Positions 277 to 36,595 of a stretch of 36,595 nucleotides of DNA are shown piece by piece; the first letter of the stretch is position 1, and every line of letters begins with the position of its first letter. Under the pieces are notes generated by a model, which ran no database searches, was not told where the DNA came from, and saw only the letters and a list, made by a program, of their open reading frames with translations. Source of the stretch: Candidatus Taenaricola geysiri. GTDB taxonomy: Bacteria; Omnitrophota; Gorgyraeia; Taenaricolales; Taenaricolaceae. The stretch spans positions 1 to 36,595 of the forward strand of contig PFGP01000125.1 of NCBI GenBank assembly GCA_002781985.1. The letters are read 5' to 3'. The position numbers and the translations under genes were made by a program.

Positions 277-1190
277 GATTTTACCCTGCATATCTCTTCG
301 CGTAATCTCGTCGCATTTGGCACGCCTTTTAAATACCACATCATTACTTTAGCCATAAATCCTGTTTTGCAGGAGGCCGGTATATTCTTATATTTTTCTA
401 TCAAGCCCAGGTGTTCCTTTAGGGCTTTTTTCTTTGCTGCAAGTGACTGGGGCTTGGGAATTTTTCCTGTTTCAAGATAGTTTTTTATTTCTTTAAATAT
501 CCAGGGATTTCCCATCGCGCCTCTTGCTACTAATATGCCGTCAGAGCCTGTCTGGTCAAACATTTTTTTTGCAAGTACAACATTAAATATATTGCCGCTT
601 GCTATCACAGGTATGCTCAAAGCATTTTTTACAGCCCTTATCGACTCATAATCAATATCTCCGGAATACCCTTCTGACATTGTCCTGCCGTGTATGAATA
701 TAACCGATGCGCCGTTGTCCTGGCAGATCTTTGCGGTTTTTACGCAGTCCTGGATATTTTTTTTGTAAAAGCCTGTTCTTAATTTTACTGAAACAGGTAT
801 TTTAAGTTTAGACGATAGTTTTTTTATAATTTTACCAAGCTGCGCCGGGTTATTTAAGAGCGCTGCTCCGGCGCCTTTTTTTATGACTTTTTTTGCCGGG
901 CAGGCGCTATTTATATCAAGAGAAGACACCTTGGTAAACGTCAGTATCTTTTGCGCGGCATCAAGCATGGTAGAGGGTTCTGTGCCCAGTAGTTGAACTG
1001 ATATGGGCGAATCTTTTTTAATGGTTTTTAACATCTCATAGGTTTTTGGCCTGTGGTAGATCACTGATTTTGCGTCCAGCATTTCAAAAAAACAATGCTC
1101 TGCGCCGAATTTACGGCACATAACCCGAAAGCTTAAATCAGTCACGCCTGACATAGGCGCTAAAAAAATCTGCTTTTTCATGTTGATCAT
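228..1190 (-). CDS. dus: tRNA-dihydrouridine synthase
   Basis: 320 aa. It has the N-terminal [13 protein letters not shown] motif, a catalytic-Cys region (NSACPAKKV) and an FMN TIM-barrel pattern (IHGRT) typical of the Dus family. Confidence 0.9.
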
Positions 1191-1236
1191 TATACTAGTT
1201 TATAGCCATAAAATAAAGGAAATTTCTTAATTTTGC

Positions 1237-1264
1237 TTGACAAATAATGATACAGTGGTATAAT
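1237..1264 (+). promoter_or_regulatory. Sigma-70-type promoter of csp
   Basis: TTGACA (1237-1242), a 16-nt spacer, then an extended -10 TGgTATAAT (TATAAT at 1259-1264). Confidence 0.7.
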
Positions 1265-1372
1265 AATTAACGTAGCAAATAAGAGATTAGAAGGTTAACC
1301 GCATGGTCGAACATCTAACCTTGCGGTTTTTTGCGATTTGCTATAATACATAAGAAATGGAGGTAACAAGTA
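1265..1372 (+). promoter_or_regulatory. Structured csp 5' UTR with a long-range closing helix and competing hairpins
   Basis: TAGCAAAT (1273-1280) pairs with ATTTGCTA (1336-1343). AACCGCA (1297-1303) pairs with TGCGGTT (1322-1328) and is followed by a T run. AAGGTTA (1291-1297) pairs with TAACCTT (1316-1322), which crosses the previous helix. GGAGG lies 9 nt before the ATG. Confidence 0.5.
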
Positions 1373-1573
1373 ATGGCGACAGGAACAGTAAAGTGGTTCA
1401 ATAATCAAAAAGGTTTTGGATTCATTACTCCGGAAAATGGCAATGATGTATTCGTGCATCATACAGCTATCAAAGGAGAGGGTTATAAGTCTTTAGAAGA
1501 AGGCCAGAAGGTCGAATTTGACATCGAAAAGGGACCTAAGGGCGAACAAGCTACAAACGTAGTTAAGATATAA
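1373..1573 (+). CDS. csp: Cold-shock protein, CspA family
   Basis: 66 aa with RNP1 (KGFGFI) and RNP2 (VFVHHTAI) motifs in a GTVKWFN context. Confidence 0.97.
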
Positions 1574-1594
1574 CTTAAAATTAAGAAAATTTTA

Positions 1595-1631
1595 CCCTTT
1601 GCAGCAATTTTTGTTGCAGAGGGTTTTTATT
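1595..1631 (+). terminator. Intrinsic terminator after csp
   Basis: A 13-bp stem, CCCTTTGCAGCAA/TTGTTGCAGAGGG (two G.U pairs), followed by TTTTTATTT. Confidence 0.75.
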
Positions 1632-1648
1632 TGAGGTACAATAAGCCC

Positions 1649-2218
1649 ATGATTAATGACAATATAAGAGAAAGCGCGCAAAAAGCGGCAAAAGATTTTA
1701 AGGCATCATGGGTGGATTTAGGCCGGGTGCTTTATACTGTATATAAAGATAAGTTGTATAAAGAATGGGGCTTTACAGATTTTGATGCTTATACATCAAA
1801 AGAGATCCACATACGCAGGCAGACCGCGACCAAGCTTTTAAAGTCGTATTATTTTTTGGAGAATAAAGAGCCGAAGTATATTGAGTCGGCTCCAAGCGTT
1901 GAGTCAGTGGATTTTTTGCGCCGGGCGAGCATGAGAAAAGATTTGGATAAAGAGGATTACGTTGACCTGAAGAAAAAATTATTCGAGTCAGGTAAAGACG
2001 CATCCGAGGTGAAAAAAGGGCTTACCACTTTAATAAGAGAGCGCCAGGAGCTCGAGCCGAAAGAGGCGTGGGAACAAAAAAGGATCAAGGTCATAAAGCG
2101 CCTGCTCGGCACGTTGAAGTCATTAAGAACCGAGCTTAAGACAACCAAAGTTTTGCCTTCGGATGTGCTCAAGGAAACAGAGAAACTGATAAACAGACTG
2201 GAGTCAGAAGTTTCATAA
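1649..2218 (+). CDS. Hypothetical protein, helical and charged; possible HTH in the N-terminal half
   Basis: The ORF is open from the TTG at 1631, but that codon sits in the T run of the csp terminator, so the ATG at 1649 (MINDNIRE) is preferred. I recognise no family signature. Confidence 0.55.
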   Translation: MINDNIRESAQKAAKDFKASWVDLGRVLYTVYKDKLYKEWGFTDFDAYTSKEIHIRRQTATKLLKSYYFLENKEPKYIESAPSVESVDFLRRASMRKDLDKEDYVDLKKKLFESGKDASEVKKGLTTLIRERQELEPKEAWEQKRIKVIKRLLGTLKSLRTELKTTKVLPSDVLKETEKLINRLESEVS

Positions 2219-2253
2219 TTAGTAAATAATATGCAAAATTTTTCGAATGTTGT

Positions 2254-2291
2254 TTCTCTGCAATGAAAATACTTGCAGAGAATTTTTTTTT
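2254..2291 (+). terminator. Intrinsic terminator
   Basis: TTCTCTGCAA (2254-2263) pairs with TTGCAGAGAA (2273-2282), followed by 9 T. Confidence 0.8.
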
Positions 2292-2323
2292 GATGTAAAA
2301 TGAATATACTTAAAATTTTAAAA

Positions 2324-2424
2324 GGAAGTCCCTCGTCCCGAGACGCCATAACGCAAATAGTTGCGGCGAGGGACTCGGGACAAATTACAACTTAGAAAAA
2401 CTATGGTAATTTGGAGGCAAACGA
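2324..2424 (+). repeat. Two-hairpin intergenic leader element, copy 1 (extended-stem variant)
   Basis: GGAAG, then H1 at 2328-2381 (GTCCC/TC/GTCCC ... GGGAC/TC/GGGAC). H2 is CAAATTAC (2381-2388) paired with GTAATTTG (2406-2413). GGAGG is at 2413-2417 and the ATG at 2425. Confidence 0.8.
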
Positions 2425-3885
2425 ATGGATTTTAAAGGCAAGGTTTTGATAATTGGTTTCGGATCAGTGGCAAGATGTACTCTTCCAATTCTTCTTAAAC
2501 ATATTGATATCCCGTGTAAAAATATTACGGTTATAGATTTCGCCGACAAGCGCGATGATCTGAAATCCTGGATAGAAAAAGGGGTGAAGTATTTTCAGAC
2601 AAGGATTACGCCCGGCAATCTGGCCGAGGAATTATCTAAACACGTTTCCAGCGGCGGGCTTATTATAGATTTGGCATGGAATATAAGCTGCGATGAAATA
2701 GTAACATGGTGCCATGACAATAATGTGCTTTATGCAAATACCTCTGTTGAAGAATGGGATCCGTATCGGGATATTGATAAAAAGGACCCGTATAAAAAGT
2801 CGCTTTATTTCCGCCAGATACTTTTGAGAAAAATGTTTTCAAAATTCAGCAGGCCTGCAACGACGTTTGTGGTAGATCACGGAGCAAACCCGGGCCTGAT
2901 TTCACATTTTACCAAAAAAGGCCTTGTTGATATAGCCGAAAAGGCGGTCAAGGACTCGGATACCGGCAAGAAAACACAAAAGGCGCTGGAGGATTTATTA
3001 AAACAGGGGCATTCAGACGAGAAATATGCGCGCCTTGCAATGGAATTGGGCGTTAAGGTTATACATTGCAGCGAACGCGATACCCAGATAACCGACAAGC
3101 CGAAAGAGGTGGATGAATTTGTCGGCACATGGTCTATAGAGGGTTTAAGGGAAGAGGGCACAGCACCAGCAGAGCTTGGATGGGGCACGCATGAGAAAAA
3201 GCTCCCACGTTACGCGCATGTGCCTAAAGAGGGCCCGAGAAACCAGATTTTTCTTTCCCAGATGGGGATGAATACATGGGTGCGTTCATGGGTGCCAAAT
3301 TTTGATATAATAGGTATGGTGATAAGGCATGCGGAGGCATTTAGTATTTCCAACAGGCTTACGGTATGGAAAGGCAAAAAAGCGGTTTACAGGCCAACCG
3401 TGCATTATGCTTACATGCCTTGTGATGAAACATTAGTTTCTTTGTATGAGCTCAGGGCCAAAAATTACCAGTTACAGCCCAAGCTGCGCATTATGAGCGA
3501 TGAAATAACAAAGGGCGAGGATATACTGGGCGCTCTTATTATGGGGCACAAATATAATTCCTGGTGGACAGGAAGCATATTGAGCATTGATGAGTCAAGA
3601 AAGATTGTTCCTCATCAGAATGCCACTACAATGCAGGTCGCGACAGGGATGGTTACGGCTGTTATGTGGATGATAGAAAATCCTCACAGGGGTTTTTGCC
3701 TTCCCGATGATTTACCCTATGACTACGTGTTGAAGATAGCAAAACCTTATCTGGGAAAGCTTGTTTCACAGGCGTCGGACTGGACGCCGCTTAAGAATTA
3801 CCGGATTTTTTTCAAGGAAAACCCCAGATCATACCTGGATGAGAAAAATATATGGTGTTTTGATAATTTCCTTTTCAGGGACTAA
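2425..3885 (+). CDS. hss: Homospermidine synthase
   Basis: 486 aa. The N-terminal Rossmann motif (IIGFGSVARCTLP) and the length match bacterial HSS (saccharopine-dehydrogenase-like). An ornithine decarboxylase gene follows 11 nt later. Confidence 0.8.
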   Translation: MDFKGKVLIIGFGSVARCTLPILLKHIDIPCKNITVIDFADKRDDLKSWIEKGVKYFQTRITPGNLAEELSKHVSSGGLIIDLAWNISCDEIVTWCHDNNVLYANTSVEEWDPYRDIDKKDPYKKSLYFRQILLRKMFSKFSRPATTFVVDHGANPGLISHFTKKGLVDIAEKAVKDSDTGKKTQKALEDLLKQGHSDEKYARLAMELGVKVIHCSERDTQITDKPKEVDEFVGTWSIEGLREEGTAPAELGWGTHEKKLPRYAHVPKEGPRNQIFLSQMGMNTWVRSWVPNFDIIGMVIRHAEAFSISNRLTVWKGKKAVYRPTVHYAYMPCDETLVSLYELRAKNYQLQPKLRIMSDEITKGEDILGALIMGHKYNSWWTGSILSIDESRKIVPHQNATTMQVATGMVTAVMWMIENPHRGFCLPDDLPYDYVLKIAKPYLGKLVSQASDWTPLKNYRIFFKENPRSYLDEKNIWCFDNFLFRD

Positions 3886-20203: not shown

Positions 20204-20205
20204 GT

Positions 20206-23881: not shown

Positions 23882-23883
23882 GC

Positions 23884-23912: not shown

Positions 23913-23920
23913 AATTAACC

Positions 23921-24661: not shown

Positions 24662-24671
24662 AGTAGTTGTT

Positions 24672-24833: not shown

Positions 24834-24834
24834 T

Positions 24835-26034
24835 ATGAAGCCTGTAACAATAGCAAATGATGTTTACTGGGTAGGCGCAATCGACAGGAATCTTAAACGT
24901 TTCCATGGTTATACATACACTGTAGCCAGAGGCACTACTTATAACTCTTATCTTATAATGGATGATAAGATTACGCTGGTAGATGCAGTATATGCGCCTT
25001 TTGCCAAGGAGTGGATAGACAATATAAAAAGCATAATAGATCCCGCGAAAATAGATTATATAGTAGTCAACCATCTTGAAACAGATCACACTGGTTCCTT
25101 GCCTGAACTTGTTAAACTTTGCCCAAAGGCAAAGCTTTACAGCACAGCCAAGTGCAAAGAAGGGCTTTTAAAGAATTACGATATTCCTTCTGACATGGTG
25201 CATGTAGTAAAAACAGGCGATAAACTGAACATAGGAAAAAGAAACCTGGATTTTATAGAGGTACCTATGATTCACTGGCCTGACAGCATGTTTACTTATT
25301 GCGCTGAAGACAAAATCCTGTTTTCAAACGACGCTTTTGGCCAGCATTACGCTACAAGCGAAAGATTTGACGACGAGGTTTCCCGGGATATACTGATGGC
25401 TGAAGCGATAAAGTATTACGCTAATATACTGTGGCCTCTTGCGCCTGTAATACTTAAAAAACTGGAGGATGTTAAAAAATTGGGCATAAAGATAAATGTT
25501 TTGGCAACAAGCCACGGTATAATATGGCGTAAAAATGTTTCAAAGATAATAGACGCGTATGTGTTGTGGTCGCAAAATAAGTCAAAACAAAAAGTAACTG
25601 TTATATTTGACAGTATGTGGGGTTCAACCGAAATCATGGCTGGAAAAATAGCCGATGCTATAAAAGACAGCGGTGTGGACGTCGCGTTGTTTAATGTTAA
25701 TAAAACATCCCTGACGGAAATAATCGCAGAGATGTTTGATTCAAAGGGTTTTATTATCGGTTCATCAACTCATGATAATGATATGTTGCCTACTATGGCA
25801 GGGTTTTTATCTTTTTTAAAAGGCCTTAAACCGAAAAATAGGATTGCCGCGGCATTCGGTTCGTATGGCTGGTCAGGAGGAGCGGTAGTTTCAATAGAAA
25901 AAGTTTATAAAGAATTAGGCCTTGAAATTATTCAGCCGTCTGTATCCGTTAAACATGTGCCTGACGAAAACGATAAAAAGGCGTGTTATGATTTCGGGAT
26001 GAGTTTCGCAAAACTCATAAAAAGTAAAATATGA
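24835..26034 (+). CDS. fprA: Flavodiiron protein (rubredoxin:oxygen/NO oxidoreductase type)
   Basis: 399 aa. It combines a metallo-beta-lactamase-like domain carrying the HLETDH diiron motif with a C-terminal flavodoxin-like domain. A rubredoxin gene lies immediately upstream. Confidence 0.9.
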   Translation: MKPVTIANDVYWVGAIDRNLKRFHGYTYTVARGTTYNSYLIMDDKITLVDAVYAPFAKEWIDNIKSIIDPAKIDYIVVNHLETDHTGSLPELVKLCPKAKLYSTAKCKEGLLKNYDIPSDMVHVVKTGDKLNIGKRNLDFIEVPMIHWPDSMFTYCAEDKILFSNDAFGQHYATSERFDDEVSRDILMAEAIKYYANILWPLAPVILKKLEDVKKLGIKINVLATSHGIIWRKNVSKIIDAYVLWSQNKSKQKVTVIFDSMWGSTEIMAGKIADAIKDSGVDVALFNVNKTSLTEIIAEMFDSKGFIIGSSTHDNDMLPTMAGFLSFLKGLKPKNRIAAAFGSYGWSGGAVVSIEKVYKELGLEIIQPSVSVKHVPDENDKKACYDFGMSFAKLIKSKI

Positions 26035-26489
26035 AGCTCAATGAAGATGTGATAGATTTTTTTAATAAACAAAACTTTGTGATTGTATCTACCATAGATA
26101 AAAATGCAGCCCCGCATTCTTCCTGTAAAGGCATAGTAAAAATAGATCCCAAGGGAATTATATATCTTCTGGATCTTTATAAAGGCAAAACGCGAGAAAA
26201 TCTCGCGAATAATAACAAAACAAGCTTAACAGCAGTTGATGAGCATAAATTTAAGGGGTATTGCCTTAAGGGTACAGCCAGTGAAATTGCGGCGGCGGAT
26301 ATTGATGCGGATGTTGCGGATGAATGGAAAAAAAAGATAACCCAGAGGATAACGCACAGGCTGATTAAGAATATTCACGGCGAGAAAGGCCACCCATATC
26401 ATCCTGAAGCGCAAATGCCGCGCCCGGAATATATTATCAGGATGGATGTGGAAGAAGTTATTGACCTTACGCCGCAGCATTTAAAATAA
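26031..26489 (+). CDS. Pyridoxamine-5'-phosphate-oxidase-like FMN-binding split-barrel protein
   Basis: 152 aa. The sequence character and context suggest the family, but I can point to no unique motif. Confidence 0.55.
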   Translation: MKLNEDVIDFFNKQNFVIVSTIDKNAAPHSSCKGIVKIDPKGIIYLLDLYKGKTRENLANNNKTSLTAVDEHKFKGYCLKGTASEIAAADIDADVADEWKKKITQRITHRLIKNIHGEKGHPYHPEAQMPRPEYIIRMDVEEVIDLTPQHLK

Positions 26490-26502
26490 CAGGAGAAAAT
26501 AT

Positions 26503-26739
26503 ATGGCCAATACAGTAATGGTTTATAGCACGCCTACGTGCCCGTATTGCATACGAGTTAAGCAGTTTCTTAAAGATAATAATGTTGCTTATCAAGATAT
26601 AGATGTTTCATCTGACCAGGCAAAGGCAGAAGAGATGACATCAAAGTCAGGACAGCTCGGCGTGCCGGTTATTGACATAAACGGGCAGGTTATAGTTGGA
26701 TTTGATAAAGGAAAGATAAAAAAGGCTTTGGGTTTATGA
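26503..26739 (+). CDS. Glutaredoxin-like (Grx/NrdH-like) small redox protein
   Basis: 78 aa with a CPYC active site in the YSTPTCPYC context and GVPVI...G..IVGFD. Confidence 0.8.
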   Translation: MANTVMVYSTPTCPYCIRVKQFLKDNNVAYQDIDVSSDQAKAEEMTSKSGQLGVPVIDINGQVIVGFDKGKIKKALGL

Positions 26740-27650
26740 CAGAAATTTTTGATTTGATTATTATCGGCGCCGGGCCGGCGGGTATAACCGCCAGTGTTTA
26801 TGCTGCGCGTAAGAGGATGAATTTTATAGTAGTTACAGGCGATATAGGCGGCCAGACCGTATGGAGCGGCGATGTAGAAAATTATACGGGCTATCAGTTT
26901 ATAACAGGCCCGGAACTTGCCGCGAAATTTGAAGAGCATATGCGCCAGTATGGTATAGAGGCAAGAGAAACGGAGTTTGTCAGCGATATCCAAAAATCAG
27001 GCGGCATAATTTCTGTAAAGACCAATAAAGGCGCCTACCAGACAAAAACACTGATTATAGCTTCCGGTAAAAAATCAAAAGAATTAAATGTGCCAGGAGA
27101 AAAAGAGTTTAAAAACAAAGGCCTTACTTATTGCGCGACATGCGACGGCCCGCTTTTTTCCGGCAAAAACGTTTCAGTTATAGGCGGCGGAAATTCCGCC
27201 CTTGACGCGGCGCTACAACTTGTTAAAATAGCAAAGCATACCTACATTATTAATATAACACCTGCTTTGGGTGGCGACGCTGTAATGCGGGCTAAAGTAG
27301 AAGAAAGCCCGTCGGTGACGATATTTAATAATACCCAGGTATCTGCTGTGTTGGGCGATAAGACAGTAACAGGCATTAGGATAAAAGATAATAAAGGCAA
27401 AGAGGATTTAGTGGCAGTGGAGGGGATTTTTGTTGAGATAGGACTTGTACCAAATTCTGATTTTGCCAGGAACATTGTAAAAAATGAACAAGGCGAAATA
27501 AAAGTAAACTGCCACAATGAAACAAATATTCCCGGCATATTCGCCGCAGGTGATGTTACAGATGTGCCGGAAAAACAGATTGTGATAGCAGCAGGAGAGG
27601 GCTCAAAAGCAGCATTAAGCGCGTTTAAATATTTGGCGAGAAAAAAATAA
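26736..27650 (+). CDS. Thioredoxin-reductase-like flavoprotein lacking the canonical NADPH Arg motif
   Basis: GAGPAG, CATCDG (redox disulfide), GGGNSALD and AAGDV motifs are present. The position of the HRRxxFR motif reads NITPALGG instead. Confidence 0.85.
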   Translation: MTEIFDLIIIGAGPAGITASVYAARKRMNFIVVTGDIGGQTVWSGDVENYTGYQFITGPELAAKFEEHMRQYGIEARETEFVSDIQKSGGIISVKTNKGAYQTKTLIIASGKKSKELNVPGEKEFKNKGLTYCATCDGPLFSGKNVSVIGGGNSALDAALQLVKIAKHTYIINITPALGGDAVMRAKVEESPSVTIFNNTQVSAVLGDKTVTGIRIKDNKGKEDLVAVEGIFVEIGLVPNSDFARNIVKNEQGEIKVNCHNETNIPGIFAAGDVTDVPEKQIVIAAGEGSKAALSAFKYLARKK

Positions 27651-27730
27651 GGAAGTTTTTCGTCCCTCGCCACTAAGTGAGATAGCTGGTGGCTCGGGAC
27701 AATTTTTACAAATGAGAGAGGAGGTAAAAA
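27651..27730 (+). repeat. Two-hairpin intergenic leader element, copy 7 (SD in the H2 loop, start codon in the H2 stem)
   Basis: GGAAG, TTTTC, then H1 at 27662-27700 (inner helix GCCAC:GTGGC). H2 is CAATTTTTA (27700-27708) paired with TAAAAATTG (27725-27733). GGAGG at 27720-27724 lies in the loop. The TTG start at 27731 lies in the 3' arm. Confidence 0.75.
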
Positions 27731-27916
27731 TTGAAGGCGAAGGTTGATAAAGATGCATGTATTGGATGTAGTTTGTGTGTTTCTACATGCCCTGAGGTTT
27801 TCAAGATGGATGCCGACAAGGCAGTTGTTATAGGCAATTCTGTTCCCGGTGGCGCAGTGGATTCTGCAAAGCGCGCAGCCGAGGAATGCCCGACTACAGC
27901 GATAGCTGTAGAATAA
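27731..27916 (+). CDS. fdx: Small single-cluster ferredoxin
   Basis: 61 aa with the CIGCSLCVSTCP ... EECP pattern. The TTG start lies 6 nt after GGAGG. Confidence 0.8.
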   Translation: MKAKVDKDACIGCSLCVSTCPEVFKMDADKAVVIGNSVPGGAVDSAKRAAEECPTTAIAVE

Positions 27917-27946: not shown

Positions 27947-27975
27947 TTGACAATAAAGCCCCGCAATGTTATATT
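27947..27975 (+). promoter_or_regulatory. Putative promoter of the Arg-rich protein gene
   Basis: TTGACA (27947-27952), a 17-nt spacer, then TATATT (27970-27975). The -10 element lies in the loop of the ferredoxin terminator hairpin. Confidence 0.45.
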
Positions 27976-27995
27976 TAGTTGCGGGGCTTATTGTT
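27957..27995 (+). terminator. Terminator-like hairpin after the ferredoxin gene
   Basis: AGCCCCGCAA (27957-27966) pairs with TTGCGGGGCT (27979-27988), followed by TATTGTT. Confidence 0.55.
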
Positions 27996-28367
27996 ATGGA
28001 AAAAAACTGTGTAATCTGCAATAAAATATTTACGCCTACCAAATACAGGCCACAGGCCCAGGAGGTCTGCTCGGATCCTGTTTGTCAGCACAAAAGACAG
28101 CTCGAAAACATGAAAAGATGGCGCCGTAATAATCCTCATTACTTTAGGCAGGATGAGATAAGAGGCGTTTACTGGAGAGAACTATACCGCCGCAGGATAC
28201 GAAGGTGGCGTAAGGAGCACCCTGAATATTTTAAGAAATACAGGGACAGGTACAAGGCCCAGCACAGGGAATATATGCGTGAATACATGAGAAGATACAG
28301 GAATGTGAAGAAAAGAATGTTGCAGCAGGCAGAGCCGCAGCCGCCAATCAGCGATATTTTGTCTTGA
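27996..28367 (+). CDS. Hypothetical zinc-ribbon plus Arg/Tyr-rich basic repeat protein
   Basis: N-terminal CVIC...C..VC, then repeats of the W/Y-R-x-x-(N/H)P-x-YF type (RWRRNNPHYFRQ, RWRKEHPEYFKKYR, HREYMREYMRRYR). The ATG at 27996 is preferred over 27966, which lies in the hairpin and upstream of the predicted TSS. Confidence 0.5.
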   Translation: MEKNCVICNKIFTPTKYRPQAQEVCSDPVCQHKRQLENMKRWRRNNPHYFRQDEIRGVYWRELYRRRIRRWRKEHPEYFKKYRDRYKAQHREYMREYMRRYRNVKKRMLQQAEPQPPISDILS

Positions 28368-28460
28368 CACTAGTAATATATATATGATAAATTGTAGTAA
28401 AATTAACGCACTAGAATTCCCCCGACAAAATGGCAGAAAGAAAAAGAAAGGAAATTTTCT

Positions 28461-30530
28461 TTGACCAGGCGTGTATTTTTCTTTTTAATCTTTTTGTTGG
28501 CAATAACGCTACCGGCCTTTGCCAGGCCTTCAAGTTCATCTGATTTTCTTATCCTGCTTGATATTACCGCGCAAAATAACCCGGATTCAGCCAGAATAAC
28601 CATATATACAAATAAATTTCTTGAATATGTAGATTACGAGCTTCAGGATGGCTCGGGCGGCATTGTTTTTGACCCTACAGAACCTTTATATGTAAATATA
28701 GAAGGCCTGAATTTTGATAAAAGCGGCATTATCAGCGGAATGAAATTTGCCAAAAGCGCTATCAAGCAGGATGATTTACCCGAGGTGTTGAAGGCGGGTT
28801 TTTACCCGTTGGATTATCTGGTTATAAATTTAAAACTTAAGTCCGGTTACAGGATATCGCAGCGGGCGAATATGATTGTTTTGGATATAGGAAATACTGC
28901 GATGCCGCTGCCTTCAGAATTTGTGCCAAGTTTTACATTAAAGCCTGCGCCTGTGCCAAAAAAAGAGGTTGCTTCAGGAGCAGGTTTGCTGCCGGAAGAT
29001 ATTGCAGCGGAATTTATAAAAACAAAACAAGGCAAAAAACAAGATAAGAAAAAAGAAAAGAAATCAAAAAAGAAACAAGAGCCGTTGGTTGAAAAAGTGT
29101 CCTTGCCGCTCCCGGCTTTAAGCCCGCAAGAGGCCGTGGCAATGGATTTTAAGCGCCTTAGGGAGGAGATTTTATCCAGGTCGCTTTCCGGCAAACCATC
29201 TTTAAAATTGCCGCAAGGCAGAAATGTACTTGGCTTTAATCAGTGCGTTGAAATAGGAACCACTAATTTTCTGCCGCTTGTTATTGCCGAAGAGGAAATG
29301 AGGCTTGGCGATATGAAAATCAATGAAGCCAAGCGCGGGATTTATCCTACAGCCACCGCAAAATATACTACAACAGACGGAGAAACGCTTGGGGTTGAGT
29401 TTACCGAAAAATCTTATGGCATGCAGGTTGAGCAGCCTCTTTATTACGGAGGCCGGCTTAAATTAACATTAAAACAGGCCCAGATAAACCGTCAGGTTGC
29501 CCAGTCGAAATTCGACAAAGCTGAAGCCGATGTGGTGTCAAAGATTACAGAGGCATTTTACGGCCTTGCTACAGCGCAACTTAATCTCGAGGACCAGAAG
29601 GAATTATTCGTAAAATCAAAAGAGATGCTTGCGCTTGCCGAGAAAAAATATAATCAGGACCTTACAACGAAACTGGAGCTGTTAAATGTCCAATCGCAAT
29701 GCAACCAGATAGATTATCAGCTTGCTGTTGCAGCCAAGGATGTTGATATTGCAAAGATAAGCCTTCTTCAGGCAATGGGCACAGACCCTCAGGCTGACAT
29801 TCGAGCCGATATGCCGCTTGATTACGCCGAGAATATTATAGATATTAACAAATGCCTTTTACTTGCATACCAGAACAGGCCTGAGTTGCATATGAATGAA
29901 CTTCTGCGGGAGGCCGCGGAATATGAAGAGAAGATAGCCAGGTCAAAGGATGATTTTAAGGTTGATTTTACAGGATTTGTCGGCCAGTCGGGCGGCGCGT
30001 ACAAAACAGAACCGTTAAATATGGGCAGTGACTGGTATATGGGATTTAAGGCGTCAAAGCCATGGCTTGGCAATACGGGTTCTTATAATTATACGCAGAA
30101 TAAAACAAGCCCTAAATTAGGCCAAAGCACAAGGACAGGAGGTACTAGCCAATCTCTTGAATTCGGCATACTGAATAATATGACGGCTTATTCTGAAAAG
30201 CAGTCCGCCTTGATAAGCAAGCTTAAAGCGGAGAATGAACTTGTTGAAATAGAAAAGGCGATAAACACCGAGGTGCGCGAAACCTACAGCAGCTATGAAA
30301 AAGCTATTATGCAGATACAGAATACGCAGGAGAAGATAAGGTTCAGGCAGGAAGAACTTAATACATTGAAGGCGCAGTCGGAAATAAACGAGGCCGCCTT
30401 GTCGCAGGTGCTTGACGCGATGGTAAAGCTTAATGATGAAAAGGCATTATACCACCAGGCTATAGCAAGCTACAAGACCGCTTTGGCGAATTTAAACAAG
30501 GCAGTGGGGCTGATAGGGTATTTCAACTAA
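28461..30530 (+). CDS. Outer-membrane efflux protein (TolC/OMF family) with a ~270-aa N-terminal extension
   Basis: 689 aa. It has a signal peptide (LPAFA/RP), a beta-rich N-terminal domain (tentatively AMIN-like), a Lys-rich linker (KQGKKQDKKKEKKSKKKQE), then two OEP repeats. Confidence 0.8.
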   Translation: MTRRVFFFLIFLLAITLPAFARPSSSSDFLILLDITAQNNPDSARITIYTNKFLEYVDYELQDGSGGIVFDPTEPLYVNIEGLNFDKSGIISGMKFAKSAIKQDDLPEVLKAGFYPLDYLVINLKLKSGYRISQRANMIVLDIGNTAMPLPSEFVPSFTLKPAPVPKKEVASGAGLLPEDIAAEFIKTKQGKKQDKKKEKKSKKKQEPLVEKVSLPLPALSPQEAVAMDFKRLREEILSRSLSGKPSLKLPQGRNVLGFNQCVEIGTTNFLPLVIAEEEMRLGDMKINEAKRGIYPTATAKYTTTDGETLGVEFTEKSYGMQVEQPLYYGGRLKLTLKQAQINRQVAQSKFDKAEADVVSKITEAFYGLATAQLNLEDQKELFVKSKEMLALAEKKYNQDLTTKLELLNVQSQCNQIDYQLAVAAKDVDIAKISLLQAMGTDPQADIRADMPLDYAENIIDINKCLLLAYQNRPELHMNELLREAAEYEEKIARSKDDFKVDFTGFVGQSGGAYKTEPLNMGSDWYMGFKASKPWLGNTGSYNYTQNKTSPKLGQSTRTGGTSQSLEFGILNNMTAYSEKQSALISKLKAENELVEIEKAINTEVRETYSSYEKAIMQIQNTQEKIRFRQEELNTLKAQSEINEAALSQVLDAMVKLNDEKALYHQAIASYKTALANLNKAVGLIGYFN

Positions 30531-30640
30531 TTCCCTCGCCGCGCCTCGTGATAAGAGGCGGCTCGGGATAAAATTTTGCCGAACACGGCATCCCGTGAAC
30601 GGGACAAATCGAGATTACTGGAAAATTTCAGAGGTGAAAA
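30531..30640 (+). repeat. Two-hairpin intergenic leader element, copy 8 (long form with 27-nt insert)
   Basis: H1 is at 30531-30569 with a degenerate outer helix (TTCCC...GGGAT). The insert at 30578-30605 lies in a 42-nt block identical to copy 2. The SD is GAGG at 30631-30634 and the ATG is at 30641. Confidence 0.75.
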
Positions 30641-31954
30641 ATGGCCGCATTGATAAAAAAAAGATTTAAGGGTTGGGGGGTTGTGCTTATTGTTATTGCC
30701 GCTCTGGTTATTATGTTTGTTGTTTACGCGGCGCCGATAGCAGAGCATTTATGGAAAGTTTTTCCAGGTATCGCAAATTTTTCTTTTGTTTCCAATCTTT
30801 TAAAAGACAGGGTAATACAAAAGTCAGGCGCTCAGTCCGCAGGCCAAGAGCAGGAAGGCGGCGCAGCCGGAGCCGAAGAAAAACAGAGGCCGGTGTCAGT
30901 TATAGTATTTAAAGCGGTAAAAAGCGATTTTGAAGATACTCTTCTAGCCATGGGCACAATAAAGGGCGTCAGAGAAATAGAGCTCAGGTTCGAGGCAAAC
31001 GGCGTTATAGACGCCATTAATTTCAGAGAAGGCGATTTTATAAAAAAAGGCGATGTAGTTGCGGTTTTGAACCAACAGGACGCCATATTAAAACTGGAAT
31101 ATTCGCAATCAAAGCTTAAAACAAGCCAGACGCAGATGCTTACGGCCAAGAAAAAACTTGAGATACATCAGAAGTTATACGAGTTGGGCACCATTATTAA
31201 ATCAAAACTCGAAGAAGTGGCTCTTGAATATGAAAACACAAAAAGCCAGGTGACATCCGCTGAAAAAGAGGTGGCGTTTGCCAAACAGGAAGTGCAAAAG
31301 GCTTATATATCTTCTCCTATTGACGGTATTATCGGCGAGCGCGAGGCAGAGGCAGGCGAATTTGTTACGTCAAACACAAAGATAGCAACTGTTATAGATG
31401 TGTCGAGTGTTTATGCTGAAGTCGGAATTATTGAAAAGGATTTGCAGAAGATAGCCCTGGATATAGAGGCAACAGCTACTGTAGACGCGTATCCTGATGT
31501 GGAATTTAAAGGAAAGATCGATAATATACTTCCTACAATAGAAGGAAAATCAAGAACAATAACCTGCAGGATTAAAATAGATAATCAGGATGGCATGCTT
31601 TTGCCGGGGATGTTTGTGAGGGCGACTATTTTTGTATTTGGCCAGAAAGATGTAATAGTGCTGCCAACCCCGAATAATACACTGCGCGATACGGATAATG
31701 ACGGAAAATTTGATTCTGTTTTTGTGGTTGATCAGGATAACGTCGCGCATCTTAAGCCTGTGGAAATAAGTTATCTTACTACTGATAACGCGGTGGTTGT
31801 TTCGGGGCTTGAAGAGGGCGAGCAGGTTGTTACAGAGGCAAGGGCTGAGCTTAGCGATGGCGCGCCGGTTGAAGTTTTGGAGACGCAGGAGGGGCTTAAG
31901 CCTCAGGAAGAGCTTCCGGGAGCAGGCGGAGAAAAAGAGATGGTGATACAGTAG
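30641..31954 (+). CDS. RND/ABC-type efflux periplasmic adaptor (MFP, HlyD_D23-like)
   Basis: 437 aa with an N-terminal TM anchor, a coiled-coil hairpin and barrel-sandwich and beta-barrel segments (YISSPIDGIIGER, LPGMFVRATI). Confidence 0.85.
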   Translation: MAALIKKRFKGWGVVLIVIAALVIMFVVYAAPIAEHLWKVFPGIANFSFVSNLLKDRVIQKSGAQSAGQEQEGGAAGAEEKQRPVSVIVFKAVKSDFEDTLLAMGTIKGVREIELRFEANGVIDAINFREGDFIKKGDVVAVLNQQDAILKLEYSQSKLKTSQTQMLTAKKKLEIHQKLYELGTIIKSKLEEVALEYENTKSQVTSAEKEVAFAKQEVQKAYISSPIDGIIGEREAEAGEFVTSNTKIATVIDVSSVYAEVGIIEKDLQKIALDIEATATVDAYPDVEFKGKIDNILPTIEGKSRTITCRIKIDNQDGMLLPGMFVRATIFVFGQKDVIVLPTPNNTLRDTDNDGKFDSVFVVDQDNVAHLKPVEISYLTTDNAVVVSGLEEGEQVVTEARAELSDGAPVEVLETQEGLKPQEELPGAGGEKEMVIQ

Positions 31955-32052
31955 CGTAGCTGGAAAAATTTGCCCCTCGCCGCAAAACGCGATTAGAAGC
32001 GGCTCGGGACAATTTTACTAAACGAGATAGCAGGTAAAATCGGAGGTGTAAT
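31955..32052 (+). repeat. Two-hairpin intergenic leader element, copy 9
   Basis: A partial module-2-like TAGCTGGAAAAATTT is followed by H1 at 31972-32010 (GCCCC/TC/GCCGC ... GCGGC/TC/GGGAC). H2 is at 32010-32017 paired with 32035-32042. GGAGG is at 32042-32046 and the ATG at 32053. Confidence 0.75.
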
Positions 32053-32730
32053 ATGGAAGAGAAAAAGCAGGCAGCACAGCAGCCTTCACCAAAAAAGAGA
32101 AACGATTCAGTTATTTTAATTATATTGGCTGGGATATTAATAGTTATTTTTGCTTTTATGGTTGCTAAATTGTTGAATACAAGCAAGGCCTCAAAGACAG
32201 AATCGAAAACCGTGCAAGCTTCCGAACCTGCTGTGCAAGAAAAAGTGATGCCTTATCCTGAAGAGCCAGTATCTATGCCTGATGCAGATATAACCGAAGG
32301 CGAGGCTGATATGGAGCAGCTGCCTGCAGAATACGCAAAGGCGCCAAGCGATGCGGAAGGTTTTTTTCAGACAGGAGAAGATCTTTATTACAAAGGGGAT
32401 TTTGATGCGGCAATAGAGAGTTTTAAAAAGGCAATCGAGCTTGACTCGCAATATGCTGACGCGTATTGCGAGATGGGCGTTTCATTTATGGAAAAAGCCG
32501 ATTGGGATACTGCTATAGCCCAGCTTAACAAGTGTATAGAAATAAACCCGAATCAACCAAAGGCGCAGTATGCAATAGCGGTTAGCTACGCCAGAAAACC
32601 AAGCCCTGATGTTGCGGCTGCAAGAGAGCATTTTGAGATATCAAAAAAATTAGGTTTTGTTTATCCGCAATGGTTTGAGGATTTTTTAAAGCGCCTTGAA
32701 GCAGGCGAGCGCTTCCCAGGTCAAAACTAG
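32053..32730 (+). CDS. Membrane-anchored TPR-repeat protein
   Basis: 225 aa with one N-terminal TM helix, an acidic linker and about three TPR units (AIESFKKAIELDSQYADAYCEMG...AIAQLNKCIEINPNQPKAQYAIA). Confidence 0.75.
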   Translation: MEEKKQAAQQPSPKKRNDSVILIILAGILIVIFAFMVAKLLNTSKASKTESKTVQASEPAVQEKVMPYPEEPVSMPDADITEGEADMEQLPAEYAKAPSDAEGFFQTGEDLYYKGDFDAAIESFKKAIELDSQYADAYCEMGVSFMEKADWDTAIAQLNKCIEINPNQPKAQYAIAVSYARKPSPDVAAAREHFEISKKLGFVYPQWFEDFLKRLEAGERFPGQN

Positions 32731-32740
32731 TAGAAATGCG

Positions 32741-32787
32741 TTGTAACATATTGTTATATAATGAGTTAAAACGTGGTGCCTGGCACC
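32741..32787 (+). repeat. 47-bp palindrome-ended repeat, copy D (solo)
   Basis: TTGTAAC (32741-32747), an 18-nt spacer, TTAAAACGT, then GGTGCCTGGCACC (32775-32787). It ends 13 nt before the RND ATG. Confidence 0.8.
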
Positions 32788-32800
32788 GAGAAAAAAAGAT

Positions 32801-35800
32801 ATGTCGTTACCCGATTTTTCGCTAAGACGGCCTATAACAGTCATAATGGTTTTTATAGGCGTAATTCTGCTGGGGTTTATCTCATGGAGCCGCCTTCCGC
32901 AGGAGCTTTTTCCTCCTATTACCTATCCGCAGCTTACCGTAGTTACCACATATAAAGACGCAGCCCCCGAAGAAATAGAAATACTAGTCACGAAACCCTT
33001 AGAAGAAACCATAGGCACAGTAAGCGGCCTAAAGCGCATAAGCTCTGCCTCCAAGGAAGAGACTTCTATAATAACCGCGGAATTCAACTGGGGCACAAAT
33101 ATGGATTTCGCTGCCCTTGGCGTAAGAGAAAAGATAGATCTTGTAAAAGAACGCCTGCCAAGGGGCTCTGAAGAGCCGGTTGTAATGAAATACAATCCGT
33201 TTGATCTGCCGGTTATGGTTTTAAATATTACATCGGACCTGCCGCCTGCTGAGGCAATGCAGTTTGTGCGCAAGGTTATAAAAAACGAGCTTGAAAAAAC
33301 AGACGGCGTGGCAGTAGTGCAGCTCTCAGGCGGAAGGGAGCGCGAGATACTTGTTGAGGTGGATCAGGGCCGGCTTCAGGCAGCCGGCATTTCTGTTGTT
33401 GCTTTGAGCGAGGCCTTAAACAAGGCAAACCTTAATTACCCGGCAGGCACTATAGAGGAATCTTTTTATGAATACCTGATAAGGACCATAGGAGAGTTTA
33501 AGGCGGTAAATGAAATAAGAGACGTCCCTGTTGTTGTGGACGAGATACCTGTCAACCCCAGAGAAGAAAATCCTCAGGAGCAGGGTATCCGGCCGCCAAA
33601 AGACAAAAAAACCGAAAAGAGGCTCATCCTTATAAAAGATGTCGCGGTAGTGAAAGATACGCTGCGGGAGCGTTCCAGTATATCAAGGTATAACGGCAAA
33701 GATAATATTTCCATTTCAGTAATAAAACAGGCAGGCGCTAATACTATCTGGGTCGCCAATAATGTCAGAGAGACAATCGGAGAATTAAAAGCCAGCATGC
33801 CTGCTCATGTAAAACTTAATATTGCATATGATCAGTCAAAATTTATAAAAGGCGCTGTTGGCGGCGTAAGAGATGCCGCTGTGCAAGGTGGATTTCTGGC
33901 GTTTATAGTGCTTTATATGTTTTTACGGCGATTCAGTTCGTCTCTGATAGTTACCGCCAGTATTCCGATATCCATACTTGGCGTATTCAGCTTGATGTAT
34001 TTTTCAAATATATCGCTTAATATGATTTCTTTAGGCGGCTTAGCGCTTGGCGTGGGCATGCTCGTAGATAACGCCATTGTTGTTATGGAGAATATTTCAC
34101 GCTACAAGGAGGCCGGTAAAAATCCAAAGGATGCCAGTGTTGCCGGCGCTAAAGAAGTGGGTTCTGCGATAACAGGCTCTACGCTGACAACAGTAGCGGT
34201 GTTTCTGCCGATGGTATTTGTTATCGGCGTTGCCGGCCAGTTATTTAAGGAGCTTGCATTTACAGTGGTAGCGTCATTAATGGTTTCATTGATTGTGGCC
34301 TTGACATTGATCCCTATAATGGTGTCAAAAGAAGCGCTTAATAAATCAAAAAATAATATACTGCCGGTTTCATTTAAAAAGTATCTGGCGCTTACTGAAA
34401 CGTTTTTTGTTAAATTAAGTTTATCGGTTAAAGAATCTGTTTTGTTTATCAAACTCAAAGAAGCGCTTTCCCTTGAGAACGCGAAAAGGGTTGTATCTTC
34501 GTCGTTGAGATTTTTCCTAAAGCACAGGATAATATGCCTGCTCTTGGTTTTTCTTGTATTTTTCATCAGCATATTTTTTCTGATAAATATGGATTGGGAA
34601 TTATTGCCAAGGGTTGATCAGGGCCAGTTTATAATCAAGGTTGACCTGCCTCCCGGCACACGGCTTGAGGTAACGGATTCGGTAGTCAAAAAAATAGAGA
34701 AAGAGCTTTTTTCTCTGCCTGAGGTAAGCGATATAACGGTTACTATAGGCTCAAGCAGGGAAAAGATCTCAGAAGGCCCTATGATAGAGACGCTTGGGTC
34801 GAATCAGTCACAGATTATGGTTTTACTTAAATCTTTGGCAGCGTATAAAAAGACAAAATATCCGCTGTTACAGTTTTTGATTGAACCTTTTTCCGTTAAA
34901 GACCCAAAGAAGGTCCGCACTCGTTCAACAGGCGAAGTGCTGCAGAGTTTGAAATCGTCTCTTGAAAAAGACAATCTTTTCGGCGCCGATGTCCAATATA
35001 TATTACAAGAAAGCGTTTTTCAGAATGCCTTTAGTAACGCCGCGCCTGTGGTTATAGAAATAAAGGGGCATGACCTGTTGAAAATAAAGGCCATATCCGA
35101 CGATGTTGAAAAGAACCTGGAAAAAATAAAAGGCGTCTATAGCGTAAGGTCTTCTTTTATAAAGCCCGCGCCCGAAGCAAAGGTATATGTCAAAAAAGAC
35201 AGGGCAGCCGCTTATAACCTGTCGGTAAGCGATATTGCCCTTACTTCGCAGACAGCCATGAAAGGCTATGTTGCCACAAAATATAAGGAAGCAGGCAGGG
35301 AAATTGATGTAAGAGTGCGCTTAAGGCCGAAAGACCGTTCCGATATTAATAAGATAAGAAGGCTTCTTGTACATTCGCCGCTTGATATCGACGTGCCTCT
35401 TGCCGAGGTTGCTTATATGAAAATAGGCAAAGGCCCCAGCCAGATACAGCGCCTGGCGCAACAGAGGGTTATAATGGTGTCAGCCGGCATATATAAAAGG
35501 CCATACAAAGAGGTGGTCGAAGATATTAATATTTTTCTCGCCCGGATGAAGTTAAGCCTGCCGCCTGATTACAGCGCAAAACTTACAGGTGAAAATCTGC
35601 AGATGAAAGAGTCGTTTGACAGCCTGCGTTTTGCGCTTATACTTTCTCTGTTTCTGGTTTACATGATTATGGCCGCGGAATTTGAATCGTTGTGGCAGCC
35701 GTTTATAATATTATTTACATTTCCGCTGTCTTTGATAGGCGTATGTTTCGGGTTATGGGTTACAAACACGGCTATTTCTATAATGGTTTTACTGGGCATT

Positions 35801-36541
35801 ATAATCCTGGGAGGCATAGTCGTAAATAACGGCATAGTGCTGGTTGAATATGTGAATCTGCTGCGCGGCCGCGATAATTTTAACCTTCACGACGCGCTTA
35901 TAGAGGCAAGCCAGATGCGGCTTCGGCCTATATTAATGACAGCGCTTACCACTGTGCTAGGCCTTTTACCTTTGGCAATAGGCCTGGCTGAGGGCGCTGA
36001 GATTCAGATTCCGATGGCAGTAACTGTTATGTCCGGTTTGACTATTTCAACTTTTCTGTCTTTAATAGTTATTCCTTTATTATATTTAAGTTTTGAAAAG
36101 TCTCTTGCTGCTGCCATGGGTTTATTTTTCGGCGCGCCACAACAGGTAAGGCTTGAATTTGAACCTGAATATAAGCCCAAACCCAAGCCCGAATATAAGA
36201 CATCAACTATAATACACCTGCCTCACAGGCGCGAGCCTTCGCCGCAGATATCTGCTATAAATCTGCCGCATCAGGAGGAAGCGCCATCTGAGCGCGATGA
36301 AAGCCGCATCTTTTTTAAAGACGTGCTTCCCGATAAATACAAGTCTATCGAACTTACCGACAGGCAGAAAGAACTTATTTTATATTTAATACAGAATGAC
36401 AGGATAACGCGCCCGGAATATATAATAAAATTTAATGTTTCTGTTGCCACCGCCGCAAGAGATATAAAGGATATGCTTGATAGAGGGCTGATAAAAACAT
36501 GCGGCCCCCAGGCAGTGGGCAGATATTATGAACTCGCCTAA
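32801..36541 (+). CDS. RND efflux permease with internal insertions and a C-terminal winged-HTH domain
   Basis: 1246 aa with AcrB-type motifs (FSLRRPITVIMVF, VDNAIVVMEN, VNNGIVLVEY). About 140 aa follow the last TM helix, ending in LTDRQKELILYLIQNDRITRPEYIIKFNVSVATAARDIKDMLDRGLIKTCGPQAVGRYYELA, which is DeoR/Fic-C-terminal-like wHTH. Confidence 0.9.
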   Translation: MSLPDFSLRRPITVIMVFIGVILLGFISWSRLPQELFPPITYPQLTVVTTYKDAAPEEIEILVTKPLEETIGTVSGLKRISSASKEETSIITAEFNWGTNMDFAALGVREKIDLVKERLPRGSEEPVVMKYNPFDLPVMVLNITSDLPPAEAMQFVRKVIKNELEKTDGVAVVQLSGGREREILVEVDQGRLQAAGISVVALSEALNKANLNYPAGTIEESFYEYLIRTIGEFKAVNEIRDVPVVVDEIPVNPREENPQEQGIRPPKDKKTEKRLILIKDVAVVKDTLRERSSISRYNGKDNISISVIKQAGANTIWVANNVRETIGELKASMPAHVKLNIAYDQSKFIKGAVGGVRDAAVQGGFLAFIVLYMFLRRFSSSLIVTASIPISILGVFSLMYFSNISLNMISLGGLALGVGMLVDNAIVVMENISRYKEAGKNPKDASVAGAKEVGSAITGSTLTTVAVFLPMVFVIGVAGQLFKELAFTVVASLMVSLIVALTLIPIMVSKEALNKSKNNILPVSFKKYLALTETFFVKLSLSVKESVLFIKLKEALSLENAKRVVSSSLRFFLKHRIICLLLVFLVFFISIFFLINMDWELLPRVDQGQFIIKVDLPPGTRLEVTDSVVKKIEKELFSLPEVSDITVTIGSSREKISEGPMIETLGSNQSQIMVLLKSLAAYKKTKYPLLQFLIEPFSVKDPKKVRTRSTGEVLQSLKSSLEKDNLFGADVQYILQESVFQNAFSNAAPVVIEIKGHDLLKIKAISDDVEKNLEKIKGVYSVRSSFIKPAPEAKVYVKKDRAAAYNLSVSDIALTSQTAMKGYVATKYKEAGREIDVRVRLRPKDRSDINKIRRLLVHSPLDIDVPLAEVAYMKIGKGPSQIQRLAQQRVIMVSAGIYKRPYKEVVEDINIFLARMKLSLPPDYSAKLTGENLQMKESFDSLRFALILSLFLVYMIMAAEFESLWQPFIILFTFPLSLIGVCFGLWVTNTAISIMVLLGIIILGGIVVNNGIVLVEYVNLLRGRDNFNLHDALIEASQMRLRPILMTALTTVLGLLPLAIGLAEGAEIQIPMAVTVMSGLTISTFLSLIVIPLLYLSFEKSLAAAMGLFFGAPQQVRLEFEPEYKPKPKPEYKTSTIIHLPHRREPSPQISAINLPHQEEAPSERDESRIFFKDVLPDKYKSIELTDRQKELILYLIQNDRITRPEYIIKFNVSVATAARDIKDMLDRGLIKTCGPQAVGRYYELA

Positions 36542-36543
36542 AT

Positions 36544-36595
36544 ATGGGACTTCCTAAAATATCAATAAATAGGCCTATAGCAGTGCTTATGCTTT
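36544..36595 (+). CDS. Second RND permease, N-terminal 17 codons only (runs off the window)
   Basis: The ATG lies 2 nt after the previous stop. MGLPKISINRPIAVLML matches the conserved RND N-terminus (x-I-x-RP-[IV]-x-x-x-M). Confidence 0.5.
   Translation, partial: MGLPKISINRPIAVLML

Follow-up and report, generated by a model that had tools for sequence, protein, structure and literature searches.

A conserved Omnitrophota gene cluster predicted to encode a two-permease tripartite RND pump tied to the cell wall and carrying its own regulator

The 3′ end of the 36,595-nt window analysed here, which is the entire contig C96 (PFGP01000125.1) of the 1.27-Mb Candidatus Taenaricola geysiri genome (96.6% complete, 152 contigs), carries a cluster of envelope genes that probably encodes a single resistance-nodulation-division (RND) pump. 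We put the probability at about 70% that this is an MdtABC/MuxABC-like tripartite RND pump with two permeases, which is tied to the cell wall and carries its own regulator. When C96 is joined to contig C34 of the same assembly, the full order of the cluster is zinc-ribbon protein (ZnR), outer-membrane factor (OMF), membrane fusion protein (MFP, the periplasmic adaptor), tetratricopeptide repeat (TPR) protein, permeases RND1 and RND2, and Lnt (Table 1). The basic machine is an ordinary tripartite RND pump and its add-ons are unusual; the most interesting of these is the winged helix-turn-helix (wHTH) domain tethered to RND1.

Results

Conservation of the cluster across an Omnitrophota class

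The first-pass annotation, made from the letters of this stretch, had called six open reading frames (ORFs) in the cluster and had named their products. All six were recovered at the same positions, and Pfam and NCBIfam agreed with it on OEP, HlyD/RND_mfp, TPR and ACR_tran as the identities of the components. It had also taken the cluster for a specialised envelope machine rather than a standard drug pump, a view that would depend on conservation of the neighbourhood. We retrieved 20-kb neighbourhoods of 16 relatives, one per family of the same class, which were picked by RND1 similarity alone. All 16 had the genes in the order long OMF - MFP - RND1 - RND2, as far as the contig reached in those loci that were cut by contig ends, and so did most of the loci that were anchored on ZnR. 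Metagenome contigs displayed the same layouts. In the nearest relative, G001 of the same order, the cluster reads ZnR - OMF (691 aa) - MFP - RND1 (1280 aa, with the wHTH) - RND2 - Lnt and lacks the TPR gene. Since the core neighbourhood is conserved across families, these genes form one conserved machine, and chance juxtaposition is ruled out. That part of the early claim stood; the other part, a specialised role instead of that of a drug pump, is possible but did not emerge as a finding, as both permeases are ordinary HAE1-like proteins, tandem permeases are a known design, and no role other than efflux was shown. The cluster appears from these comparisons to be an operon that is conserved across the class and vertically inherited.

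The window breaks off within the RND2 gene, whose N-terminal codons, from 36544 onwards, are typical of RND permeases. Contigs nearly identical to C96 occur in many public assemblies, and two of them (L040 and L042) read past this end into an RND2 of 1029 aa. Contig C34 (3.3 kb) contains on its minus strand (3296..1062) the 3′-terminal 744 codons of an RND gene (ACR_tran, 1.5e-154), and this ORF is 99% identical to residues 286-608 of the RND2 encoded by the public contigs, so that C96 joins C34 over a gap of ~0.8 kb. The extension of the contig that the first-pass annotation had proposed thus completes RND2, and it reveals lnt behind it. One further public contig that is otherwise near-identical (L039, 18579-20402) lacks RND2 residues ~277-455, which is either a deletion variant in the natural population or an assembly error.

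Two anciently duplicated permeases

The match of RND1 to ACR_tran (3.9e-230) covers residues 5-1098 and is followed by a tail of ~150 aa. RND1 orthologues share 46-64% identity with RND1 and ~34% with RND2, and the converse holds for RND2 orthologues; the two paralogues themselves are only ~35% identical, and either shares ~25% identity with MdtB, MdtC and AcrB of E. coli. All loci retrieved had the two permease paralogues encoded in tandem, in the same order and together with a single MFP gene. In a tree of 42 sequences, RND1 (19 sequences) and RND2 (18) were each monophyletic with a support of 100 and were sisters of each other with a support of 99; the single canonical Omnitrophota RND branched outside this pair, and E. 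coli MdtB and MdtC were sisters with a support of 100. Because each pair is formed by sisters, the duplications are separate: the RND1/RND2 duplication is old and independent of the Mdt/Mux duplication, and orthology of RND1 and RND2 to MdtB and MdtC is ruled out by the tree. The RND1 and RND2 subtrees are largely congruent and share most groupings, as expected of a co-inherited pair.

The best solved relative of RND1 in the PDB is MdtB (9lyq_B). On the NCBIfam equivalogs RND1 scored 383 bits for MdtB/MuxB (cut-off 1584) and 400 bits for MdtC (cut-off 1774), far below in both cases. The NCBIfam results place RND1 and RND2 in the HAE1-like multidrug group and not among the HpnN, MmpL or SecDF lipid/protein exporters. 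Equivalents of AcrB residues D407, N941, R971 and T978 were invariant in 19 RND1 and 17-18 RND2 sequences.

An AMIN-type domain ahead of the OMF channel

The OMF matched Pfam OEP (1.3e-37) in two stretches from about residue 274 on, leaving an N-terminal extra domain, and scored 76.5 bits on TIGR01844 (cut-off 225), as a distant member would. An AF2 model of the N-terminal domain, computed from a small alignment, was confidently all-beta (pLDDT 80-92) and was followed by a disordered Lys/Pro-rich linker. Its top Foldseek matches in the PDB were AmiC (4bin; E 2.6e-3, prob 1.0) and two PilQ entries, 3jc8_Qa (prob 1.0) and 4aqz (prob 0.94). A word-based homologue search limited to this domain returned only four proteins. 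In the orthologues of G040, G031, G012, G015 and G020, which are linked to the window's domain by BLAST, Pfam AMIN scored 21.5-31.2 bits and thus above its cut-off. An N-terminal extension, 83-1732 aa long, was present in 41 of the 41 OMF orthologues examined: 26 belong to the AMIN-like BLAST group, eight carry TonB_C and three a short TPR-like stretch. A periplasmic module ahead of the channel is hence a fixed feature of the pump. Because the AMIN domains of AmiC and PilQ bind peptidoglycan, the natural reading is that the domain found here would anchor the OMF channel to peptidoglycan.

The OMF orthologue at locus L029 (G004) is a 2222-aa ORF with ~1730 aa before the OEP repeats. At another locus (L033, 2950-12697; one metagenome-assembled genome), ZnR is located between a divergent gene for a TonB_C-OMF protein and a giant gene with a predicted product of 11,851 aa.

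The winged helix of RND1 and a candidate operator

Alignment of 32 RND1 tails revealed, after the last transmembrane helix, a disordered Pro/Glu/Lys-rich linker, 26-507 aa long in the relatives, and behind it a strongly conserved wHTH of 62 aa (LNxRQ..L...LK..GRITRKEY..L.G.SVPTAARDLKELVDRGLI.G.GP.A.GRYY.L). Orthologous tails scored 21.3-27.7 bits, above the cut-offs of Pfam HTH_DeoR or HTH_24. A word-based homologue search limited to the RND1 tail returned only three proteins. An exhaustive phmmer search of 1.84 billion representative proteins with the wHTH tail gave 142 hits, and the six long hits tested were all ACR_tran proteins with the domain at their extreme C-terminus. As the C-terminus of AcrB-type RND permeases is cytoplasmic, the wHTH would be able to reach DNA. 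In one subclade (L021, L032, L048-L070 and P0093) the disordered tether contains a short conserved motif, (E)LPEIPxDFGxEE(A/V)VPE, which may be the docking site of a partner.

In relatives, the decamer TGATACGGTT is clustered around the OMF promoter in both orientations; in G001 and L037 it is found on both sides of the -35 box and after the -10 box. We counted it from -400 to +100 of the OMF start with one mismatch allowed, conditions under which ~0.03 hits per locus are expected by chance. It was present at the OMF promoter in 22 of 24 loci with the wHTH, vs one of six in which the wHTH was lacking or degenerate (Fisher p = 8e-4). Its occurrence is independent of ZnR, as it is present in seven loci without ZnR and missing from four with ZnR. 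The five loci that clearly lack the wHTH (L028, L029, L030, L031 and L035) have a gene of the ROK family, which includes wHTH repressors, directly upstream. Because TGATACGGTT tracks the wHTH in relatives and a ROK gene is located upstream where the wHTH is missing, there is good comparative support from relatives for the RND1 tail as regulator of the operon, a role in which it would bind DNA.

The recognition helix in the family to which the window belongs (L038, L076, L077 and the window itself) is slightly different, SVATAARD(I/L)K(D/E)ML. A replacement operator for this family was not found in the loci obtained, truncation having removed the promoter regions of its family-level relatives, and TGATACGGTT is not clustered anywhere in the genome (six exact copies vs ~3 expected).

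Clusters of TGATACGGTT are also present 3′ of the operon, after lnt in L016 (G001; 2940-2986) and after RND2 in L021 (G023; 16563-16662), and in L055 and L059 they precede the gene that follows ZnR. With clusters beyond the OMF promoter, the repeat marks more than the promoter of the pump.

A zinc-ribbon protein at the head of the operon

Alignment of ZnR with its homologues showed C5, C8, C25, C30, W42-R43, W60, W71 and YMREYMRRYR to be invariant, and made a longer frame starting at 27966 unlikely. An AF2 model (pLDDT 90) consists of the zinc ribbon and three long helices. The family comprises 45 clusters, all unnamed. ZnR and 34 family members gave no convincing match in Pfam, NCBIfam or PHROGs, nor did fold libraries of the PDB and of viral proteins yield one; the resemblances to YacG, to PHD fingers and to modules of HNH endonucleases were weak, short zinc-ribbon similarities, and each was rejected as an identity. 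A profile scan that took one genome from each of 185,579 species yielded 31 loci, nearly all titled Omnitrophota or bearing a coarse PVC-group label, as does G001. The family thus appears to be confined to Omnitrophota and without known relative.

ZnR adjoins the OMF gene in 23 of the 31 species loci, 17 times co-directional and directly upstream of OMF-MFP-RND1(-RND2) and six times divergent, and many relatives have a similar TTGACA / TGnTAnnnT promoter before the ZnR gene. Such a placement, heading the operon or pointing away from it, would suit a local regulator, and ZnR would in that role bind DNA. A tRNA gene is located directly upstream of ZnR in one subclade and ROK-family genes in another, sometimes without an RND cluster (L044, L045 and L056); the loci in which these neighbours were observed are L032, L048-L050, L054, L058, L061, L065, L068, L069 and L021.

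Adaptor, TPR protein and downstream lnt

The MFP scored 239.3 bits on TIGR01730 RND_mfp (cut-off 94.9); its best named NCBIfam equivalog is MdtA/MuxA, below the cut-off. The early statement that every component of the cluster is embellished proved overstated. The MFP adds just a transmembrane (TM) anchor and a linker of low complexity, and RND2 is a plain permease.

The TPR protein matched TPR_11 (6e-19) and related Pfam families. Orthologues occupy the same slot between MFP and RND1 in L038, L076 and L077, which are of the same family, and in G011 and G024; elsewhere the slot holds a WD40 propeller (L036) or two other genes (G020), and it is empty in most relatives. The TPR gene appears accordingly to be a lineage-variable accessory, found in this family and sporadically in a few other lineages, and its periplasmic product probably acts as a scaffold.

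Contig C34 carries a partial lnt (LNT_N 3.3e-33, CN_hydrolase 6e-12). It is the sole lnt of the assembly, which holds just two OMF genes. The RND2-lnt order was found only in this taxonomic order (G000, G001, L037 and L076). Outside it, the genes after RND2 (GH94, T2SS-F, a helicase, a solute-binding protein and genes of unknown function) are mutually unrelated.

Promoters, junctions and repeats

Promoter-like sites are located just before the ZnR and OMF genes, and no comparable sites were found in the OMF-MFP, MFP-TPR and TPR-RND1 junctions. RND1 stop and RND2 start are separated by 2 nt (MGLPKISINRPIAVLML...), and RND2 and lnt overlap by 1 nt (TAATG). These promoter-like sites and the gene spacing suggest co-transcription; OMF through RND2, and in this taxonomic order lnt too, are probably driven by the promoter before the OMF gene. 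The inverted repeat at the ZnR promoter may act as terminator for the ferredoxin gene that lies upstream, as an operator, or in both ways. A CACTAG direct repeat (28368-28373 and 28409-28414) flanks the -10 region of the OMF promoter, where relatives have TGATACGGTT repeats.

The repeats that the first-pass annotation had placed in the junctions are present (Table 1). Both types have additional copies elsewhere in the window, those of the palindrome-ended family D3 being at 9933, 13135 and 21068. The OMF-MFP junction of relatives is 10-60 nt long and without leader repeat. Relative L038 has junctions of 10-53 nt that are free of repeats, and the leader and palindrome-ended repeats are thus recent, genome-specific fillers; as relatives' junctions are short and repeat-free, a part in the machine is ruled out for them.

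No RNA family matched within the cluster in an Rfam scan of the window. The window's sole match is a TPP riboswitch (RF00059, 66 bits; 12196-12304, plus strand) just 5′ of the ORF at 12326-13147. On its 5′ side the cluster borders on an oxidative-stress/redox block (19793-27916) with genes for Rrf2, ferredoxins, hybrid-cluster protein, desulfoferrodoxin, rubredoxin, flavodiiron protein, glutaredoxin and thioredoxin reductase, the synteny of which is kept in the near-identical public contigs.

Table 1. Features of the cluster and their positions in the window
Feature	Position	Strand	Size	Description
ZnR promoter	27947..27975	+		sigma-70-like, TTGACA-17-TATATT with TG, 11/12 matches; consensus match only
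Inverted repeat	27957-27991		11-bp arms	AAGCCCCGCAA ... TTGCGGGGCTT; overlaps spacer and -10 box of ZnR promoter
ZnR	27996..28367	+	123 aa	very basic; Cys4 zinc ribbon, then three long helices
OMF promoter	28364..28393	+		second sigma-70-like, TTGACA-18-TAAATT with TG; directly before OMF gene, overlaps ZnR stop codon
OMF	28461..30530	+	689 aa	TolC-like; signal peptide, AMIN domain, Lys/Pro-rich linker, two OEP repeats
AMIN-type domain	28548..28892	+		predicted beta-sandwich, OMF residues ~30-144
Leader repeat	30531..30640 (element 30518-30643)	+		two hairpins; exactly fills OMF-MFP junction; families D1, D4
MFP	30641..31954	+	437 aa	periplasmic adaptor, TM-helix anchor; HlyD_D23 1.3e-31
Leader repeat	31959..32047	+		two hairpins; MFP-TPR junction; families D1, D2, D5
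TPR protein	32053..32730	+	225 aa	bitopic inner-membrane protein; one N-terminal TM helix, periplasmic TPR domain
Palindrome-ended repeat	32734..32796	+	~60 nt	TPR-RND1 junction; family D3
RND1	32801..36541	+	1246 aa	HAE1-like permease with cytoplasmic C-terminal tail
wHTH	36347..36538	+		DeoR/MarR-like; C-terminal end of RND1, after ~60-aa Pro/Glu/Lys-rich linker
RND2 (start)	36544..36595	+	1029 aa in full	first 17 codons; window ends 52 nt into gene

Discussion

The pump that we propose would be one proton-driven tripartite RND efflux system, vertically inherited in an Omnitrophota class. Its TolC-like channel would be held to peptidoglycan by the N-terminal AMIN domain, and the TM-anchored MFP would link this channel to RND1 and RND2, a pair of paralogous permeases of the inner membrane that most likely cooperate in the manner of MdtB2C/MuxBC. 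Regulation would be built in, by means of the RND1 wHTH on its long disordered cytoplasmic tether, with the small, separately transcribed ZnR at the operon head as a further part. The TPR protein would be a family-level accessory.

Several observations weigh against this reading. The window's own AMIN and wHTH domains score below the Pfam cut-offs: the OMF domain reaches 16.6 bits on AMIN (PF11741, cut-off 20.5), and the wHTH reaches 16.7 bits on HTH_24 (cut-off 21.9), with a match to AdcR at E 0.01; the wHTH aligns unambiguously with the orthologous tails. The decamer TGATACGGTT is absent from the window (one one-mismatch match, which is the chance level) and from the family-level relatives L038, L076 and L077, and its association with the wHTH was counted over related genomes with a statistic that ignores kinship. 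ZnR has a fold that matches nothing known in the PDB and viral fold libraries, and in at least four loci (L044, L045, L047 and L056) it occurs without a nearby OMF or RND gene. The argument for an RND1/RND2 heteromer is drawn from tandem genes and co-inheritance alone. Finally, the AcrB relay residue D408 is replaced by N, A, G, S or T and K940 by N or D in RND1/RND2. The same replacements occur in the canonical RND of the genome; they point to a relay variant and not to a dead pump, and neither paralogue looks inactivated.

The relay positions vary further within the clade. Some RND1 orthologues with G, A, S or T at the D408 position have Asp at that of K940, as in L028 (G002), where TM4 reads VDGAIVV and TM10 IVDNGI; clade-wide, eight D408 replacements of the G/A/S/T kind and five Asp at K940 were counted among RND1 sequences. 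This hints that the second carboxylate has shifted from TM4 to TM10 in some RND1 orthologues.

How the two permeases are used, and for what, can be read in other ways. RND1 and RND2 might be two alternative homotrimeric pumps, each with substrates of its own, that use a common MFP and a common OMF: they are only ~35% identical, and both keep the full relay set of the single canonical RND, so that each could work alone. We consider this unlikely, as the pair is co-inherited in constant order with largely congruent trees over at least 16 families, and such co-inheritance is the pattern of the obligate permease pairs MdtBC and MuxBC. Alternatively, the system might be no detoxifying pump but be dedicated to the export of a building block of the envelope (a lipid, lipoprotein, glycolipid or polymer), with the TPR, WD40 or PDZ protein as scaffold and Lnt as partner. 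The genome's only lnt overlaps the RND2 stop codon, and this order is kept in G001, L037 and L076; a GT9 heptosyltransferase gene is located just upstream in G001; a periplasmic scaffold gene (TPR, WD40 or TPR+PDZ) recurs in the MFP-RND1 slot of several lineages; and a genome of 1.27 Mb retains, for ordinary efflux, another RND pump that is plain and controlled by MarR. Yet the linkage to lnt is confined to one order, with different downstream genes elsewhere, most relatives have no gene in the accessory slot, and both permeases belong to the HAE1-like multidrug group rather than to HpnN, MmpL or SecDF. We therefore hold a dedicated exporter to be quite improbable and prefer the efflux pump with two cooperating permeases.

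The regulatory part of the proposal can likewise be read more narrowly or more boldly. On the narrow side, neither the wHTH tail nor ZnR would regulate the operon: the wHTH would bind proteins or anchor the nucleoid, and ZnR would be an unrelated nucleic-acid-binding protein that is merely encoded upstream. An operator-like repeat was indeed not found in the window, wHTHs of the same type occur in tandem arrays in other long proteins (P0056 and P0069), which is unusual for simple repressors, and ZnR has its own promoter and in one subclade follows ROK genes without a nearby RND cluster. These points are set against the co-occurrence of TGATACGGTT and wHTH at the operon promoter of relatives, the ROK gene directly upstream in five loci with a wHTH-less RND1, and the fact that ZnR neighbours the OMF gene at 23 of the 31 loci, co-directional and divergent alike; altogether this explanation seems to us rather unlikely. 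On the bold side, the pump might be its own transcription factor, with the tethered RND1 wHTH binding promoter repeats (TGATACGGTT in most relatives and a different site in this family) and ZnR as a second DNA-binding partner of new fold. We put this forward tentatively, with the odds somewhat against it; if true, the transport state or assembly of the pump would feed back on its expression, or the DNA of the operon would be held at the envelope.

Omnitrophota are widespread, uncultured and mostly tiny-celled, and their envelope biology is almost unknown. The operon is one of few multi-gene envelope systems kept across many Omnitrophota families, even in a genome of 1.27 Mb. A literature search on Omnitrophota RND pumps found nothing relevant, and descriptions of an AMIN-TolC fusion or of an RND fusion to a DNA-binding domain were not found either. 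Including the ZnR family and the variant fusion to TonB_C, three features of the operon were hence not found described in the literature searched: a TolC-type channel fused to AMIN/TonB_C, the RND-wHTH fusion, and ZnR. Should the AMIN domain serve as an anchor of the channel, it would provide pumps with a further means of crossing the cell wall; if the wHTH regulates the operon, it would constitute a direct feedback device from transporter to gene.

Comparison with known systems

The closest parallels to the cluster are MdtABC-TolC of E. coli and MuxABC-OpmB of P. aeruginosa, in which one adaptor gene is likewise followed by two tandem RND permease genes (in the E. coli comparison the gene order was mdtABCD), and in Mux the OMF gene belongs to the operon, as it does here. 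The likeness extends to the proteins, MdtB being the best solved relative of RND1, and MdtC, MdtB/MuxB and MdtA/MuxA the best named NCBIfam equivalogs. Nevertheless, the cluster scores far below all equivalog cut-offs, its permeases were duplicated independently, and its relay is D-N / N-N instead of D-D / K-N. Mdt/Mux operons are not known to have an OMF with an AMIN domain, a permease with a wHTH, or accessory genes for a zinc-ribbon or TPR protein.

Within the window, the operon at 13276-19007, which had been singled out early as a canonical contrast to the cluster, indeed reads MarR - OEP - HlyD - ACR_tran. It has the same three pump parts and the same relay variant as the cluster, but differs from it in a single permease, which branches outside the RND1+RND2 pair, a 425-aa OMF without N-terminal domain, a 290-aa MFP and a separate MarR gene. 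The AMIN domains of AmiC and PilQ resemble that of the OMF in fold and in their N-terminal periplasmic position on an envelope protein; the difference is that AMIN is here fused to a channel of the TolC family.

With local repressors of the AcrR, MarR and MexR type the cluster shares a winged-helix domain, here predicted to bind DNA, that is dedicated to an efflux operon, and with the membrane-tethered one-component regulators ToxR and CadC it shares a domain held at the inner membrane. It differs from all of these in that the domain is the transporter's own C-terminus, carried on a disordered tether of 26-507 aa.

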